Positions 49,201 to 57,394 of a stretch of 64,000 nt of DNA are shown here, piece by piece. Position 1 is the stretch's first letter; every line of letters starts with the position of its first letter. The translations under genes and the position numbers were made by a program. The stretch lies in the NCBI RefSeq assembly GCF_053078305.1, contig NZ_CP166879.1; one strand, 5' to 3'. Under the pieces are notes generated by a model. That model saw only the letters and a program-made list of their open reading frames with translations. It was not told the origin of the DNA and searched no databases.

Positions 49201-50868
49201 GTGGCTCAATTCGTTTATACCATGCATCGTGTCGGCAAAGTTGTTCCGCCGAAACGTCATATTTTGAAAAACATCTCTCTGAGTTTCTTCCCTGGGGCAA
49301 AAATTGGTGTCCTGGGTCTGAATGGCGCGGGTAAGTCCACCCTGCTGCGCATTATGGCGGGCATTGATAAAGACATCGAAGGTGAAGCGCGTCCGCAGCC
49401 AGACATCAAGATTGGTTATCTGCCGCAGGAACCGCAGCTGAACCCGGAACACACCGTGCGTGAGTCCATTGAAGAAGCGGTTTCAGAAGTGGTTAACGCC
49501 CTGAAACGCCTGGATGAAGTGTATGCGCTGTACGCCGATCCGGATGCCGATTTTGACAAGCTGGCCGCTGAACAAGGCCGTCTGGAAGAGATCATTCAGG
49601 CTCACGACGGTCATAATCTGAACGTACAGCTGGAGCGTGCGGCGGATGCGCTACGTCTGCCGGACTGGGACGCGAAAATCGCTAACCTCTCCGGTGGTGA
49701 GCGTCGTCGCGTGGCGTTGTGCCGCCTGCTGCTGGAAAAACCAGACATGCTGCTGCTCGACGAACCGACCAACCACCTGGATGCCGAATCCGTGGCCTGG
49801 CTGGAACGCTTCCTGCACGACTTCGAAGGCACCGTGGTGGCGATTACCCACGACCGTTACTTCCTCGATAACGTTGCGGGCTGGATCCTCGAACTTGACC
49901 GCGGTGAAGGTATTCCGTGGGAAGGTAACTACTCCTCCTGGCTGGAGCAGAAAGATCAGCGTCTGGCGCAGGAAGCTTCACAAGAAGCGGCGCGTCGTAA
50001 GTCGATCGAGAAAGAGCTGGAGTGGGTACGTCAGGGAACTAAAGGCCGCCAGTCGAAAGGTAAAGCACGTCTGGCACGCTTTGAAGAGCTGAACAGCACC
50101 GAATACCAGAAACGTAACGAAACCAACGAACTGTTTATTCCACCTGGACCGCGTCTGGGCGATAAAGTGCTGGAAGTCAGCAACCTGCGTAAATCCTACG
50201 GCGATCGCCTGCTGATTGATGACCTGAGCTTCTCGATCCCGAAAGGGGCGATCGTCGGGATCATCGGTCCGAACGGCGCGGGTAAATCGACCCTGTTCCG
50301 TATGATCTCCGGTCAGGAACAGCCGGACAGCGGCACCATCACTTTGGGTGAAACGGTGAAACTGGCATCGGTTGATCAGTTCCGTGACTCAATGGATAAC
50401 AGCAAAACCGTTTGGGAAGAAGTTTCAGGCGGGCTGGATATTATGAAGATCGGCAACACCGAGATGCCAAGCCGCGCCTACGTTGGCCGCTTTAACTTTA
50501 AAGGGGTTGATCAGGGTAAACGCGTTGGTGAACTCTCCGGTGGTGAGCGCGGTCGTCTGCATCTGGCGAAGCTGCTGCAGGTTGGCGGCAACATGCTGCT
50601 GCTAGACGAACCAACCAACGACCTGGATATCGAAACCCTGCGCGCGCTGGAAAACGCCCTGCTGGAGTTCCCGGGCTGTGCGATGGTTATCTCGCACGAC
50701 CGTTGGTTCCTCGACCGTATCGCCACGCACATTCTGGATTACCAGGATGAAGGTAAAGTTGAGTTCTTCGAAGGTAACTTTACCGAGTACGAAGAGTACA
50801 AGAAACGCACGCTGGGCGCAGACGCGCTGGAGCCGAAGCGTATCAAGTACAAGCGTATTGCGAAGTAA
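49201..50868 (+). CDS. ettA: Energy-dependent translational throttle (ABC-F ATPase)
   Basis: 555-aa ORF with two ABC cassettes (GLNGAGKST, LSGGERRR; GPNGAGKST, LSGGERGR); recognised as EttA. Confidence 0.97.
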   Translation: MAQFVYTMHRVGKVVPPKRHILKNISLSFFPGAKIGVLGLNGAGKSTLLRIMAGIDKDIEGEARPQPDIKIGYLPQEPQLNPEHTVRESIEEAVSEVVNALKRLDEVYALYADPDADFDKLAAEQGRLEEIIQAHDGHNLNVQLERAADALRLPDWDAKIANLSGGERRRVALCRLLLEKPDMLLLDEPTNHLDAESVAWLERFLHDFEGTVVAITHDRYFLDNVAGWILELDRGEGIPWEGNYSSWLEQKDQRLAQEASQEAARRKSIEKELEWVRQGTKGRQSKGKARLARFEELNSTEYQKRNETNELFIPPGPRLGDKVLEVSNLRKSYGDRLLIDDLSFSIPKGAIVGIIGPNGAGKSTLFRMISGQEQPDSGTITLGETVKLASVDQFRDSMDNSKTVWEEVSGGLDIMKIGNTEMPSRAYVGRFNFKGVDQGKRVGELSGGERGRLHLAKLLQVGGNMLLLDEPTNDLDIETLRALENALLEFPGCAMVISHDRWFLDRIATHILDYQDEGKVEFFEGNFTEYEEYKKRTLGADALEPKRIKYKRIAK

Positions 50869-50871
50869 TGC

Positions 50872-50915
50872 GTAAAATGCCGGATGCGGCGCGCCAGCAC
50901 CGCATCCGGTATTAG
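50872..50915. repeat. REP-like palindrome
   Basis: GCCGGATGCGGCGCGCCAGCACCGCATCCGGTA inverted repeat after ettA stop. Confidence 0.55.
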
Positions 50916-51023
50916 TTAAATGATTAGTCCCCGGAAAAAGGCAGAATTTTCTTTTAGTGTATTAGCTCAGATGCGGACTGACATCTCAAATCAAGCGGGA
51001 ACTCATGATTCCCGCTTAACGTT

Positions 51024-51911
51024 CTATTCACCGCGCAGAATCTGGCGGAAATGGGAAACCAACGGACGTTGGTTGGCTTTATGCCAGGCTGCCCATAATT
51101 GCGTTGAATAATTCATCCACGGCAATTCACGTAATACCACCCCTTCCGGCGCATTATGACGCAGACTATGTTGAATTAAGGCCAGACCTAATCCCGCAGC
51201 GACCAGACCTAATGCCGTGAGGGGTTCACCCGCTTCCAGGCGAATATCAGGATTAAACCCGGCGTTAACACAGGCGGCGACAAAATGATCGCGAGAATGC
51301 GCATCGTCGTTATGAATCACCGCAATCCACTGCTCATCGCCAAGTTGTGACGCGACAAGGTTTTCCTCCTGCGCCAGAGGATGATTTTGCGGTAAGGCCA
51401 ACAACATTCGATCATCCAGAACCTGAATATATTCCAGATCCTGCTCGCTGTCGGTGGGCGGCGTATCGACCAGAGAAAAATCGAGACTGCGCTGGCGCAG
51501 GCCTTCAATCTGGGTAGCCGGTGGTTGGCTGTAAAGTGCGATATGCACATTCGGACGCGATACACGTAACGTACGTAGCGCCGTAGAAAGCACACCGGAA
51601 TGCATGGCGTTTTCGATATAGCCAATACACAAGCCACCATCTTCCCCCCGTCCCAGGCGTTTGCCTAACGACTCCAGGCGGTTGGCGTGTGTCAGCAACG
51701 AACGTGTTTCGGCAAGGAATGTCTGTCCATCAGCGGTCAGGCGAATGCGCTGCTGATTACGCTCAAACAGCGTCAGCCCCAGTCGTTCTTCCAGTTGTGC
51801 AATCTGGCGGCTCAGCGGCGATTGCGAGATATGTAATCGCTCGGCTGCGCGTCCCACGTGCTCTTCTTCTGCGACCACCACGAAGTACTTCAGTTGGCGT
51901 AAATCAATCAT
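51024..51911 (-). CDS. LysR-family transcriptional regulator
   Basis: Track ORF 51024..52004; probable start at internal ATG giving MIDLRQLKYFVVVAEEEHVGRAAERLHISQSPLSRQIAQLE (classic LysR HTH); divergent from the oxidoreductase genes. Confidence 0.85.
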   Translation of the reverse strand: MIDLRQLKYFVVVAEEEHVGRAAERLHISQSPLSRQIAQLEERLGLTLFERNQQRIRLTADGQTFLAETRSLLTHANRLESLGKRLGRGEDGGLCIGYIENAMHSGVLSTALRTLRVSRPNVHIALYSQPPATQIEGLRQRSLDFSLVDTPPTDSEQDLEYIQVLDDRMLLALPQNHPLAQEENLVASQLGDEQWIAVIHNDDAHSRDHFVAACVNAGFNPDIRLEAGEPLTALGLVAAGLGLALIQHSLRHNAPEGVVLRELPWMNYSTQLWAAWHKANQRPLVSHFRQILRGE

Positions 51912-52044
51912 GTTAGACCTCAAAGGACTTAAGTCAGACGAATTATGTCCTATCAAGTCACAACCTCGCAAGGTATTGTGATCCACGTCACAGGGCGATA
52001 GCAAAAAAACGCCCTAACCCAAACCGAATAATTGAGGACATCTT

Positions 52045-53055
52045 ATGAGCATTAAAAATTTACTCCCCGGCAAAATTGGCTTAGGCGGCGCACCACTTGG
52101 CAACATGTTCCGTGCCATTCCGGAAGAAGAGGCCCACGCCACCGTGAGCGAAGCCTGGAACCTGGGTGTGCGTTACTTTGATACCGCGCCGCTGTACGGC
52201 TCTGGCCTTTCTGAAATCCGCATGGGTGAAGCGCTGTCTCAGTATCCACGCGATGAATACGTTCTGAGTAGCAAAGTCGGTCGCATCATGCTGGACGAAA
52301 TGGAAGATCCGGCAAAACGGGATTTCGGTGAAAAAGGTGGCCTGTTCGAACACGGCCTGAAAAACAAAATTCTGAATGACTACTCTGCTGACGCCACTCT
52401 GCGCTCGATTGAAGACAGCCTGAAACGCCTGAAAACAGACCGTCTGGATATTGTCTGGATCCACGACCCGGCGCAGGACTTCTACGGTGACAGCTGGCTG
52501 GAGCAGTTCAACATTGCCCGTACCGGTGCATTTCGTGCGCTGACGCGTTTGCGTGACGAAGGTGTGATTAAAGCCTGGGGACTGGGTGTGAACCGCGTCG
52601 AACCTTGCGAACTGACGCTGGCGCTGGACGAACCGAAGCCGGATGCGTTCCTGCTGGCGGGGCGTTATTCCCTGCTGGATCACGAACGTGCGCTGCAACG
52701 CCTGATGCCAGAAGCACTGGAACAGAACGTGGATATCGTTGTGGGCGGTCCATACAGCTCTGGCGTACTGGCAGGCGGCGAGCACTTTGAATATCAGAAA
52801 GCCTCTGCGGCCATCCAGCAGAAAGTGGCGCAAATTAACGCCATTGCCACACGTTTCAATGTGAACGTTAAAGCGGCTGCGCTGCAGTTCGCGCTGGCAA
52901 ACCCGGCCGTTGCAGCGGTTATTCCTGGCTCCAGCCGTCCTGGTCGTATGGCAGAAGATCTGGCTGCACTGAATGCGCCTGTTCCGGCTGAATTCTGGGC
53001 AGAAATGCGCCGTCAAAATCTGGTTGCGGAAAACGCTCCGCTGCCGACCCGTTAA
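52045..53055 (+). CDS. Aldo-keto reductase family oxidoreductase
   Basis: 336-aa ORF with AKR-like GVRYFDTAPLYG and DIVWIHDP motifs; GAGGA ribosome-binding site upstream. Confidence 0.85.
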   Translation: MSIKNLLPGKIGLGGAPLGNMFRAIPEEEAHATVSEAWNLGVRYFDTAPLYGSGLSEIRMGEALSQYPRDEYVLSSKVGRIMLDEMEDPAKRDFGEKGGLFEHGLKNKILNDYSADATLRSIEDSLKRLKTDRLDIVWIHDPAQDFYGDSWLEQFNIARTGAFRALTRLRDEGVIKAWGLGVNRVEPCELTLALDEPKPDAFLLAGRYSLLDHERALQRLMPEALEQNVDIVVGGPYSSGVLAGGEHFEYQKASAAIQQKVAQINAIATRFNVNVKAAALQFALANPAVAAVIPGSSRPGRMAEDLAALNAPVPAEFWAEMRRQNLVAENAPLPTR

Positions 53056-53074
53056 TCAACCAGGTGAGAAAACG

Positions 53075-53872
53075 ATGAAACTGGATCTGACAGGTAAAGT
53101 CGCGGTGGTCAGCGGCTCAACCTCCGGCATTGGGCAGGGTATCGCCGCCGGACTGGCAAAAGCAGGCGCAACGGTGGTTGTCGTCGGCCGTAAACAGAGC
53201 GGCGTTGATGACGCCATGGCTGCGATTGCGGCACAAACTCCCACAGCGTCACTGCGCGGCGTGGTGGCCGATCTCAGCACCGAAGACGGCGTGGCTGCGC
53301 TGATCGCTGCAGTCCCAACGGCTGATGTGCTGGTCAATAATCTGGGCATTTTTAACGATAAAGATTTCTTTAGCGTTCCGGATGATGAGTGGATGCACTT
53401 CTATAACGTCAACGTCCTCTCCGGCGTTCGTCTGGCGCGTCACTATGCGCCAGGCATGACGGAACAGGGCTGGGGGCGGATTATCTTTGTCTCGTCCGAA
53501 TCCGGCGTGGCAATCCCTGGCGACATGATCAACTACGGCGTCACCAAAGCCGCGAATCTGGCGGTTTCTCATGGTCTGGCGAAACGACTGGCGGGGACCG
53601 GTGTGACCGTCAACGCCATTCTGCCAGGGCCAACCTTTACCGATGGCCTGAAAGAGATGCTGGCGGATGCCGCTGCACAATCGGGACGCAGTGCGCGTGA
53701 ACAGGCCGATGAATTTGTTAAAACCTCGCGTCCGAGCTCCATCATCCAGCGTGCGGCAGATGTGGAAGAAGTGGCGAATCTGGCGGTTTATCTCGCGTCA
53801 CCGCTTTCCTCGGCAACCACAGGGGCAGCCCTGCGCGTCGATGGCGGCGTCGTCGACACCCTGACAATGTAA
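53075..53872 (+). CDS. Short-chain dehydrogenase/reductase (SDR) family oxidoreductase
   Basis: Internal start MKLDLTGKVAVVSGSTSGIGQGIA (TGxxxGxG) within track ORF 52973..53872; YGVTKAA catalytic motif; ribosome-binding site present. Confidence 0.85.
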   Translation: MKLDLTGKVAVVSGSTSGIGQGIAAGLAKAGATVVVVGRKQSGVDDAMAAIAAQTPTASLRGVVADLSTEDGVAALIAAVPTADVLVNNLGIFNDKDFFSVPDDEWMHFYNVNVLSGVRLARHYAPGMTEQGWGRIIFVSSESGVAIPGDMINYGVTKAANLAVSHGLAKRLAGTGVTVNAILPGPTFTDGLKEMLADAAAQSGRSAREQADEFVKTSRPSSIIQRAADVEEVANLAVYLASPLSSATTGAALRVDGGVVDTLTM

Positions 53873-53897
53873 CCCTATAAATTAAGAGAAAATTATC

Positions 53898-54314
53898 ATG
53901 GCTAAAACAACTGTATCGATCGAAATTCCGGCTTCTGGCGACGCCGTATGGCAATTGATGGGCGGCTTTGATGCGCTGCCAGACTGGCTACCATTCATCC
54001 CGAAAAGCGTGGTGACAGAAGGCGGTCGCGTTCGTTCGCTGACAACCTCTGACGGCGGCACTGTGGTTGAACGTCTGGAAGCGTTTGATAACCGTCAACG
54101 CAGTTATACCTATTCCATTATTCAGGCACCGTTCCCGGTGGTGGATTACCTCTCCACCATTACCGTTCATGAAACCGCCGACAGCCAGGTTTCCCGTGTG
54201 GAATGGTTCGGTGAATTCACCCCGGTGAATGTGACGAACGAAGAGGCCGAGGCGCTGTTTACCGGCATCTATCGGGATGGACTCAAGGCGCTTAAGGACA
54301 ACTTTGTTGCCTGA
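53898..54314 (+). CDS. Small START/Bet v1-like (SRPBCC-type) protein of unknown function
   Basis: 138-aa ORF 25 nt after the SDR gene; family assignment is tentative. Confidence 0.6.
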   Translation: MAKTTVSIEIPASGDAVWQLMGGFDALPDWLPFIPKSVVTEGGRVRSLTTSDGGTVVERLEAFDNRQRSYTYSIIQAPFPVVDYLSTITVHETADSQVSRVEWFGEFTPVNVTNEEAEALFTGIYRDGLKALKDNFVA

Positions 54315-54471
54315 TGCGATCGACAGGCGTCGGCACGTCCGGCGTCTGATTATTAACAAAAACAGAATAGTCTATTGTCATTTGTATCATTTATGTTATC
54401 AGACAGCAGGCGTATTCTCTCCCCATCGCGTTAATAAACGCCAAACAATTAAGACACTCTGGAATATAAAC

Positions 54472-54684
54472 ATGAAAACGATCATCGCAATTTTTACCGC
54501 TTCTCTTTTCTCTGTCGCGGCGTTTAACGCATCGGCGCAAAGCGTGACAGCAACCGGTACAACACTGGATTCCGCTGAAGCGGTTATTGCGCAGAAAGCG
54601 AAAGAGATGAACGCCTCTGAATACAAAATTACCAGCGCTCGCATGGGCAATACCGTCACCATGAGTGCCGAACTGTATAAATAA
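54472..54684 (+). CDS. Small secreted stress-type protein (YdgH/BhsA/McbA-like, DUF1471)
   Basis: Internal start MKTIIAIFTASLFSVAAFNASAQ (signal peptide) then ...SEYKITSARMGNTVTMSAELYK, characteristic of the family; 70 aa. Confidence 0.7.
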   Translation: MKTIIAIFTASLFSVAAFNASAQSVTATGTTLDSAEAVIAQKAKEMNASEYKITSARMGNTVTMSAELYK

Positions 54685-54732
54685 TCGCGCGAGGAACCCA
54701 TTACGTAATTTGCTAAATATGCGCTGAATGCG

Positions 54733-55039
54733 TTGCCATTAATAAACCGTATTGTACTGCCACCGATGACGCGTTCCCGCGCCGGTGCGGGTGACGTTGC
54801 GATTGGCATGATGGCGGAGTATTACGCGCAGCGCGCCAGTGCTGGACTTATCATCAGCGAAGGTACGCAAATCAGCAGAATCGCTGCGCATAATTTTCCA
54901 CGGCACGCTGATTTACTCCGGTAAATACACCAAAGCGCGCGCCGAACAGGCGCTGGCTAACGGCTGGTCGGATCTGATTGGTTTTGGTCGTCCGTATAGT
55001 GCCAGGAGCGGAAGTTGTCGAAGGGTCATAAAGAGCTAA
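54733..55039 (+). pseudogene. Remnant of an Old Yellow Enzyme-type NADH:flavin oxidoreductase (NemA-like), internally deleted and frameshifted
   Basis: Frame 1 (54733..54924) MPLINRIVLPPMTRSRAG...MAEYYAQRASAGLIISEGTQIS resembles the OYE N-terminus; a second frame (54839..55039) ...GKYTKARAEQALANGWSDLIGFGRPY resembles the OYE C-terminus; the ~300 central residues are missing. Confidence 0.6.
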
Positions 55040-55315
55040 ACCCCGGCATTGCTTCTCAGCTGTTTATAGCCGTTCCTGGGTACAAGTGAGCACTAAGGCG
55101 AGCATTGTTATAATCACCAACCAATCACTAGTTGTGTACAAATTCTGACCGCAAAGCGAACTCTCCGGCATGCAGGTTGGAGAAAGCACAGTTGACCTAA
55201 AATGCTCCTCCAGCCAGAAACAAAAGGTGGCCGATAATTCGAAAGCAAAAAAAGATAAAGCAGGGAATGTGCCCGCAAATTCTTAATCATATAGCCAAAC
55301 CGAGCAGCGTATGAT

Positions 55316-55345
55316 ATCCAGCCCTGATACGGGCTGGATATTAAA
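55316..55345. terminator. Perfect palindromic hairpin
   Basis: ATATCCAGCCC-TGATAC-GGGCTGGATAT followed by TAAATTTTCG; just 3' of the lipoprotein gene stop and at the end of an ORF-free ~300 bp. Confidence 0.4.
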
Positions 55346-55355
55346 TTTTCGCCGG

Positions 55356-55823
55356 TCAGTTATCGCAATGACCTGGCACTGCTAACTTAACTTCAGGTTT
55401 AGAAACGACGCGGATACCTTCGCTTTCGGATACCTGTTCAAGTCCAGCCCCACCAACAAAAACGCCCATTTTGATGTACTGGCGAACAAAGTAGTTTTTC
55501 CCGGACGTGACATTGAGTGTCAGATTATTAGGTGAAAACTCGGATTCAGTTCCCAGCGTATGTGGTTGGCTGGTCGATATTTGCTGATAGAAAAAGACTC
55601 TGTCAGCCGTTTCACCAAGACAACGGCCGTCAAGATAAACATCCTTTTTTAACGCTTTACCAACAAAGCTGTCTCTGTAAACGTATAGACCGGCTTTGCC
55701 ATTTTCCGGGACCGGGAAAGACTTAGCTGTCTCGTTTTCAGCATTACTGCCCAGAGGAACCGACGCACACCCCCCCAGAAGCACTGAGGAAATAATGACT
55801 GCGCCAAATAAAATTTTATTCAT
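55356..55823 (-). CDS. Putative lipoprotein
   Basis: 155-aa ORF with lipobox (VLLGGCAS) after signal peptide. Confidence 0.75.
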   Translation of the reverse strand: MNKILFGAVIISSVLLGGCASVPLGSNAENETAKSFPVPENGKAGLYVYRDSFVGKALKKDVYLDGRCLGETADRVFFYQQISTSQPHTLGTESEFSPNNLTLNVTSGKNYFVRQYIKMGVFVGGAGLEQVSESEGIRVVSKPEVKLAVPGHCDN

Positions 55824-56161
55824 TGAATTCTCATGGAGTTAAGAAAATCGCCAAATGAGAATAAACTTATTTTACACTTATGTCATTAAAGGAGGCATTG
55901 CTTCACAACAACATCAATGTTCATCCCGGAACCGTCCACTTCCGCTTCTCGCTCAAAACGGACTGTCATATTTGATTGCATTCTGGCTACGCAACCGGTC
56001 GGTTGGAGTATGAAGTTGCTCACGAATAGCCTTAGCATCCGCAATTTCGTAGCGGGTCACCCGTACAGGTTCTTTCTAATCTCGACAGCCTCTTCCAGAG
56101 AGGTTTTCAACTCATCAAAAAAACTCATTTTATACCTCGCCTTTGAGCAGTTTCATCACGG

Positions 56162-57394
56162 TTATCTCTGCTCCCCCATCATCTCCCGCACCAGCTCCAC
56201 GCAGCGCAGGAAACGGCTGTCGTAATCTTCCTCTTCAACCCGCACAAATTCGATATTGTTCTCTTCCAGCATCTCCACCAGCAGATTCTGGAACTCTTTA
56301 CGATCCACCGAACTGCCGAGGCTGCGTAAACCATCCGCCACCCACGGCGTGTTGTTCTCCAGCAGGATCACCAGATCGAAACGGTATTCATCAATCAGCG
56401 CCTGCACGAACGGATGTTCCCGCCCTTCGTACTTTTTGCAGAACGCCTGAGTGGTGACAAAATCGGTATCGATAAATGCCACTTTATTGGCATATTTCAC
56501 CGCAAAATCAATGTATTGAGCGTGGCCCAGCGCGATTTTATCGTAGTCAGAATACTGCAATGCGATCTCATCACCGCCGAGGTGTGAAAAGACATAATCG
56601 CGGCCATATTCCCACGCACTGGTGGTGTTGAAGATATTGGCAAGTTTGTTTACCAGGGTGGATTTACCGCTCGACTCGCCGCCAAGGATCGCCACGGTAC
56701 GCACAAAAAACGGCTTCACTTCGGTAGGAATATATTCCCAGTAGCGGAACGGGTTTTCGCGGATCTGCGCACCGCTGATACTCATAAAGGTACGTTTCGG
56801 ATCGACCAGCACCGTCTCGATCCCCAGATGTTCCATATACTGTGGCGCATCGGCTTCTTCCGAGGTGTAGATCAGATCCGGCTGGATCCCTTTTTCAGCC
56901 ATAAACTTTTTGATACCGTTGCTCCACACATCCCAGCCGTGCGGATACGGCTCCATGCCCTCTTCGTTGAAAGCATGAATGCGAATATTTTTCTGATATT
57001 TAAAAGTTTGCAATAACCAGCGCAGACGATCCGGCACGGTCGGCTGCTGCGACATGGCACTGTCTTCGAACAACGCGCGGTCACGGGTATCGTCAAAACC
57101 CATAATGATATGCAGCTCGTCAACCTGGCTACAGGCGCGCTGGATAAGGTAGATATGTCCGGTATGCAGTGGGTAGAACTTACCGAATACGACACCGATC
57201 GTTTTCTTCTGCCGGGGAAACTCAAGCCCCAAAAAACGGTGCAACGCCTCCAGCTTTTGCGCGCTGGGGCTTTTAATTTTGGCATTCAGTAACTGGCTTA
57301 AATACCCTTTGGTCATACCGCTGGCATCAGCTACCTGCTGTAGCGTGCAGCCCTGTTGCTTGATGGCAGTTTTCAGGTAATCAAATGACGACAT
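56162..57394 (-). CDS. nadR: Trifunctional NAD biosynthesis/regulator protein NadR
   Basis: Track ORF 56162..57415; accepted 410-aa NadR starts at MSSFDYLKTAIKQQGCTLQQVADASGMTKGYLSQL. Confidence 0.95.
   Translation of the reverse strand: MSSFDYLKTAIKQQGCTLQQVADASGMTKGYLSQLLNAKIKSPSAQKLEALHRFLGLEFPRQKKTIGVVFGKFYPLHTGHIYLIQRACSQVDELHIIMGFDDTRDRALFEDSAMSQQPTVPDRLRWLLQTFKYQKNIRIHAFNEEGMEPYPHGWDVWSNGIKKFMAEKGIQPDLIYTSEEADAPQYMEHLGIETVLVDPKRTFMSISGAQIRENPFRYWEYIPTEVKPFFVRTVAILGGESSGKSTLVNKLANIFNTTSAWEYGRDYVFSHLGGDEIALQYSDYDKIALGHAQYIDFAVKYANKVAFIDTDFVTTQAFCKKYEGREHPFVQALIDEYRFDLVILLENNTPWVADGLRSLGSSVDRKEFQNLLVEMLEENNIEFVRVEEEDYDSRFLRCVELVREMMGEQR

Follow-up and report, generated by a model that had tools for sequence, protein, structure and literature searches.

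The solved structures closest to the gene pair discussed here belong to the HigB2-HigA2 toxin-antitoxin (TA) system of Vibrio cholerae (PDB 5JAA, 5J9I, 8A0X). Residues 1-36 of its antitoxin, VcHigA2, are disordered and fold onto the toxin, a peptide comprising residues 3-22 is the minimal inhibitor and inhibits the toxin alone, and the C-terminal helix-turn-helix (HTH) dimer, described as MqsA-like, binds DNA (PMC5416850). An intact pair sharing the toxin-first order of HigB2-HigA2 is known from Escherichia coli, where it occupies the nadR-ettA intergenic region of strains NRG857c and CFT073 under the name parE-3/yiaG-2 (TA30) (PMC7232551). The intact order, as found in UID2309220036, is nadR, a gene for a 110-aa RelE/ParE family toxin, the gene for the 94-aa protein NadS, and ettA. 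The toxin matches PF06296 (RelE) and, among solved structures, V. cholerae HigB-2 (E 8.4e-16); judged from this homology with V. cholerae HigBA2, it would be a RelE-fold, ribosome-dependent mRNA endonuclease.

Intact NadS has the layout of HigA2, i.e., an N-terminal extension followed by a C-terminal XRE HTH. Pfam HTH_3 was identified at residues 35-79, the HTH region matches V. cholerae HigA-2 among solved structures (E 2.2e-6), and 32 residues precede the aligned HTH region. The N-terminal segments of the two antitoxins, in contrast, have no detectable sequence similarity, and a comparison of the N-terminal 45 aa of NadS with PDB sequences gave no meaningful match. If the roles of the VcHigA2 parts carry over, a disordered N-terminus of NadS would neutralise the toxin, while the C-terminal XRE HTH dimer would bind the operator; since there is no sequence match to the VcHigA2 N-terminus, the former role is assigned to residues 1-32 by position only.

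Full-length NadS homologs (69-98% identity) are encoded at 80 species-representative loci (L012-L091), which span Enterobacterales, Alteromonadales, Oceanospirillales and others across many Gammaproteobacteria. The N-terminal 22 residues are well conserved among these 80 proteins. A HigB2-like gene lies directly upstream at 69 loci, and nadR adjoins the NadS homolog at a single one, from an Escherichia cryptic-clade genome. The name NadS therefore reflects Escherichia synteny and not function, and the family is a widespread HigA2-type antitoxin. A literature search on "NadS family" returned nothing on the protein family.

The DNA analyzed here, referred to as the window, is a 64-kb stretch in which the region between nadR and ettA is rearranged (Table 1). 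In our interpretation, the two broken frames downstream of nadR are what is left of the 5' part of nadS, which encoded the antitoxin of a type II TA operon of the HigB2/HigA2 type, and no longer form a functional gene; we assign this reading a probability of about 0.93. Earlier annotation or publications already cover nadS, its decay to a pseudogene and the intact TA pair between nadR and ettA; the detail of the split gene given below is a small addition.

Table 1. Features of the nadR-ettA region of the window, ordered by position.
Feature	Position	Strand	Remarks
ettA (context)	49201..50868	plus	conserved far-side neighbour of nadS
REP hairpin	50876-50913		between ettA and the nadS 3' fragment
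nadS 3' end	50960..50924	minus	TLKENSAFFRGL, ~residues 80-91; tblastn (50960..50925) and DNA alignments
Island, ~5.05 kb	50961..56012		replaces nadS codons 43-79
LysR regulator	51024-52004	minus	island
Aldo/keto reductase	52045-53055		island
SDR	to 53872		island
SRPBCC	53898-54314		island
DUF1471	to 54684		island
Old-yellow-enzyme pseudogene fragments	54733-55039	plus	island
Inverted-repeat partner arm	54990..55020		within the old-yellow-enzyme pseudogene remnant
DUF2846 lipoprotein cassette	55356-55823	minus	island
Inverted-repeat arm, nadS side	55933..55963		imperfect, 31 nt
Second-ORF tail	56012..55953	minus	HTPTDRLRSQNAIKYDSPF, then stop; island right end, not nadS
Second ORF, 35 codons	56060..55953	minus	GTG 56060, TGA 55955..55953
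nadS codons 22-42, native frame	56075..56013	minus	KEPVRVTRYEIADAKAIREQL; tblastn and alignments
10-bp deletion junction	56077/56076	minus	AACAAGGTTT missing; alignments to intact nadS
Native nadS codons 1-17	56128..56078	minus	MSFFDELKTSLEEAVEI
First ORF, 23 codons and stop	56128..56057	minus	ATG 56128..56126, TGA 56059..56057
Toxin-gene 3' end, last 29 nt	56158..56130	minus	includes stop 56132..56130; alignment to the intact pair, NZ_CM142674
nadR (context)	56162..57394	minus	TAA stop 56164..56162

The nadS ATG is located 33 nt downstream of the end of nadR on the minus strand, and both minus-strand frames that the first-pass annotation had described from this position are present exactly as it gave them. 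The first encodes MSFFDELKTSLEEAVEIRKNLYG; after native codon 17 it runs through six out-of-frame codons (RKNLYG) into a TGA. The second, which lies in a different frame and whose GTG overlaps that TGA, encodes (V/M)TRYEIADAKAIREQLHTPTDRLRSQNAIKYDSPF. Alignment with intact nadS identified the cause of the frameshift as a 10-bp deletion just past codon 17. The window has preserved the ribosome binding site (RBS), the ATG and codons 1-17, the native Shine-Dalgarno sequence (GAGG) being held by the 29-nt remnant of the toxin gene, which is fused to the nadR stop codon.

The antitoxin-derived share of the second ORF is confined to nadS codons 22-42. Similarity to intact nadS ends at ...AIREQL (...CAACT in the DNA, ~56013), and intact nadS has nothing that corresponds to the following 19 codons (56012..55956); their sequence is common to island-bearing strains only, and the stop codon of the ORF falls within one arm of the inverted repeat described below. 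The antitoxin of ~58 aa that had been proposed from the two frames joined together is thus genuine up to ...AIREQL, while its last 19 codons are island sequence.

The resemblance to an antitoxin is not due to chance. A tblastn search of the window with the intact 94-aa E. coli NadS matched both frames (E 1e-12), with residues 1-21 and residues 22-43 (56075..56010) each at 86% identity. The repaired 58-aa sequence matched NCBIfam profile NF041265 (NadS) over positions 1-44 of 94 with E 1.5e-14 and 54 bits, below the curated cutoff of 60 bits because truncation leaves under half of the profile covered; K-12 NadS scored 69.1 bits and intact NadS 182.6 bits. A Pfam scan of the repaired 58-aa sequence and of the 23-aa and 35-aa products gave zero hits, and the homology surfaced only through the NCBIfam profile and genome comparison.

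Position and existing annotation agree with this assignment. The remnant lies directly downstream of nadR and upstream of ettA in continuous DNA alignment with annotated nadS, and in a megablast comparison with 5,426 complete E. coli genomes the first gene past nadR is annotated as "nadS: NadS family protein". The same allele in strain ST2747 is labeled by PGAP as [quoted passage not shown] and is followed by the island; strains 504239 and 67-1 carry the same pseudogene annotation, and the window is 99.4% identical to the pseudogene of 504239 over 181 nt. Position, 10-bp deletion and island breakpoint are as in these three strains, with no essential difference except that, a few hundred bases further on, the window has a DUF2846 cassette that is less common. 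The earlier idea of a frameshifted, decayed and lone XRE-type antitoxin remnant is borne out by these data, and the intact TA pairs whose search at this junction it had proposed are present in 674 of the 5,426 genomes.

A resemblance to HigA/MqsA-type antitoxins had been suggested, and the antitoxin part of this suggestion holds, with the type being HigA2 (NadS in NCBIfam) and not MqsA or classical HigA. That the remnant belongs to either of the latter families is extremely improbable. The C-terminal HTH of intact NadS does bear a distant resemblance to that of MqsA (YgiT), with matches below threshold to the MqsA C-terminal HTH (TIGR03830, 38 bits against a cutoff of 61.8; PF15731, 20.5 bits against a cutoff of 30), as might be said of the VcHigA2 HTH, itself described as MqsA-like (PMC5416850). 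Yet the best solved relatives of the pair are HigA-2 and HigB-2, the partner toxin is RelE-like (PF06296) and not of the MqsR type, and intact NadS contains no cysteine and therefore no MqsA zinc finger (CxxC...CxxC) in an N-terminal domain. As for classical HigA, TIGR02607 was absent from the NCBIfam hits of intact NadS at E values up to 1. The copy in the window lacks any HTH, the surviving part being the N-terminal segment, which would be the toxin-neutralising one by analogy with VcHigA2.

The 3' end of this HigA2-type gene was traced to the other side of the island. The nadS 3' fragment on the ettA side carries an 11-bp deletion and a displaced native stop, and is contiguous with the REP hairpin and the ettA flank, as in intact strains. 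With the 5' breakpoint at one island edge and the 3' end at the opposite edge, the island therefore sits inside nadS, where codons 43-79, i.e., the C-terminal XRE/HTH_3 domain, have been replaced. The remnant had been placed at the right edge of an insert; this is its location, although the insert interrupts nadS and does not merely abut it. The region is best annotated as a single nadS pseudogene split into 56128..56013 and 50960..50924 rather than as new small ORFs.

Taking the TA30 pair as the ancestral form, the window keeps 29 nt of the toxin gene and nadS codons 1-17, 22-42 and 80-91; it has lost the HTH domain as well as the promoter and the toxin, and the antitoxin frame is shifted. 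This state was probably reached in three steps: (i) a deletion of ~395 bp would have taken away the promoter together with all but 29 nt of the toxin gene, (ii) a ~5-kb metabolic/regulatory island would then have replaced codons 43-79 with the entire HTH domain, splitting the gene into a 5' piece on the nadR side and a 3' stub on the ettA side, and (iii) the 10-bp deletion past codon 17 would have frameshifted the 5' piece, with the 11-bp deletion arising in the 3' stub. The order of the steps is inferred from shared junctions and not from phylogeny.

The distribution of locus states was determined in the 5,426 complete E. coli genomes using identity and coverage bands, so that the counts are approximate. 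Besides the 674 genomes with intact toxin and nadS, the island type was found with the 10-bp deletion in ~460 and without it in ~70, no match to the remnant was obtained in 448, and most of the remaining genomes are K-12-like, with the 3' part of nadS replaced by REP sequence. All matches begin at query position 396-400, so all remnant-bearing E. coli share the toxin-deletion junction of the window. The 10-bp deletion was also found in ST2747, ETEC6335, 504239, 67-1 and 23AR0303. Further independent lesions affect the start of the gene: ATG has changed to ATA, together with a 1-nt deletion, in MB07152, ATCC 43896, B771 and 23AR0303, and to TTG in ST2747 and O158.

K-12 (TG1) has the order nadR, a gene for a 55-aa NadS (L003, 2773-2940), and ettA. 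The C-terminal 17 of the 55 residues (VDRKRCSRRIRHSVLNA) are encoded by a REP/BIME repeat, which replaced the HTH-coding part, and K-12 nadS is therefore also a truncated antitoxin remnant. Escherichia sp. MOD1-EC7003 (L012, 2860-3420) carries a full-length orphan nadS of 94 aa next to nadR. The deletion of its toxin gene is different, with ~95 nt preserved at the 3' end, and at least two losses of the toxin have therefore taken place at this locus in Escherichia. Chromosomal TA modules usually decay in this way, with loss of the toxin followed by erosion of the orphan antitoxin, and the locus is a clean textbook case in which E. coli lineages have acquired several lesions independently of one another. 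Beyond correct annotation, its importance is slight.

A functional type II TA system requires a toxin, an antitoxin and its own promoter/operator; in the window, each of these is either absent or damaged. A homology search of the 64 kb found no toxin homolog. The promoter/operator region was deleted along with the toxin, which leaves the remnant without one of its own, and no terminator-like site was found between nadR and the remnant. At most, a 23-residue peptide might be translated from nadR read-through transcripts via the retained RBS and ATG; having no toxin partner in cis and no DNA-binding domain, it would be expected to do nothing, and the remnant is presumably without function. Among ~15 billion predicted proteins, there is no entry for either the 23-aa or the 35-aa product.

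The retained 5' end also permits a different view, according to which the remnant has been kept as a mini-antitoxin: by analogy with VcHigA2, the 23-aa peptide (or the 55-aa NadS of K-12) would act as a free toxin-neutralising helix, providing anti-addiction against incoming HigB2-type toxins of plasmids or phages. The ability of the VcHigA2 peptide 3-22 to inhibit the toxin by itself (PMC5416850) fits this view, as does the conservation of the N-terminal 22 residues among the 80 full-length homologs. Furthermore, the intact codons 1-17 supply 17 of the ~22 residues that correspond by position to the smallest inhibitory peptide of VcHigA2, the 55-aa K-12 nadS ORF appears to be translated according to reporter evidence, the sole experimental mention of nadS that we found in the literature (PMC12350097), and two different 3' truncations (by REP in K-12 and by the island) both fall just past the N-terminal segment. 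If this view were right, the majority of E. coli strains would have retained an anti-addiction micro-protein from a TA module that has otherwise been dismantled, and it would join the antitoxin fragments that act as immunity factors.

Nevertheless, we consider such a role very unlikely. The start-codon losses and frameshifts in this same segment in many E. coli lineages argue against selection, and the comparison of K-12 with the intact allele, with five nonsynonymous and two synonymous differences in 38 codons, looks neutral, albeit in a small sample. The frameshift in the window removes helix residues 18-22 and the whole subsequent beta-strand segment: of the native codons, 1-17 are still read in frame and 22-42 persist out of frame, and their match to the VcHigA2 helix (~3-22) and strand (~28-37) is positional only. 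The lack of a toxin homolog in the window and of the peptide in any protein collection likewise speaks for a non-functional nadS pseudogene.

We also considered whether the stretch past nadR has been kept as an RNA element (a nadR 3' UTR, a terminator or a small RNA), the ORFs being incidental. Among the E. coli alleles compared, hardly any variation occurs in the first ~75 nt past the nadR stop, as might be expected of such an element, but this level of conservation does not exceed that expected from divergence within the species, and the stretch is missing from 448 of the 5,426 genomes. With no terminator-like site, no Rfam match and an unremarkable folding energy (z = -1.14), this explanation has next to no probability, and the sequence is best described as what remains of the nadS 5' end.

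At least 80% of the island that splits the nadS pseudogene is carried by ~479 E. coli genomes. The old-yellow-enzyme pseudogene within it consists of two pieces of a NemA-like NADH:flavin oxidoreductase, namely the N-terminal ~48 aa and a C-terminal part ending in ...GFGRPY. One of these remnants and the region next to the 5' piece of nadS contain the arms of an inverted repeat (31-34 nt, ~77% complementary), a score reached by one of 500 shuffled sequences; the repeat was also found at L001 2938-2971 and 4452-4485. It brackets a variable cassette, comprising the DUF2846 lipoprotein gene in the window, TauE/SafE and winged-HTH genes in ST2747, and a GNAT acetyltransferase gene in O158, and in each strain it runs a few bases into strain-specific sequence. 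Both arms and the cassette are deleted in the ETEC6335 type, which represents most island-bearing strains. Neither an uninterrupted palindrome nor an empty cassette site with the left flank joined to the right was found at ≥80% coverage in the 5,426 E. coli genomes.

None of the 5,426 complete E. coli genomes contains the DUF2846 lipoprotein cassette, and the exact 30-nt junction between the nadS remnant and this cassette was found in none of 100,044 species-representative genomes. In a plasmid search, the nearest DNA match of the DUF2846 gene, located on a plasmid of 8.6 kb, had 71.6% identity. An identical protein is recorded on 25 E. coli contigs, and the arrangement in the window is therefore a rare variant of the locus. 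The second-ORF tail (55953-56012) was tested as a decayed, same-orientation copy of the old-yellow-enzyme C-terminus, and this origin was rejected, as 67 of 500 shuffles scored as high in direct local alignment. A motif, ATG(A/T)CAGTCCG..T.TGAGC, occurs in the same orientation near both island ends (50964-50985 and 55952-55973, minus strand), with ~17 of 22 positions matching, and is too short to tell from chance.

Elsewhere in the window, a block at ~12000-20000 has a low GC content (0.35-0.40, vs about 0.52 elsewhere) and contains a run of same-strand ORFs, including one of 816 aa (16341-18791). Such an arrangement hints at a chaperone-usher fimbrial operon acquired by horizontal transfer.
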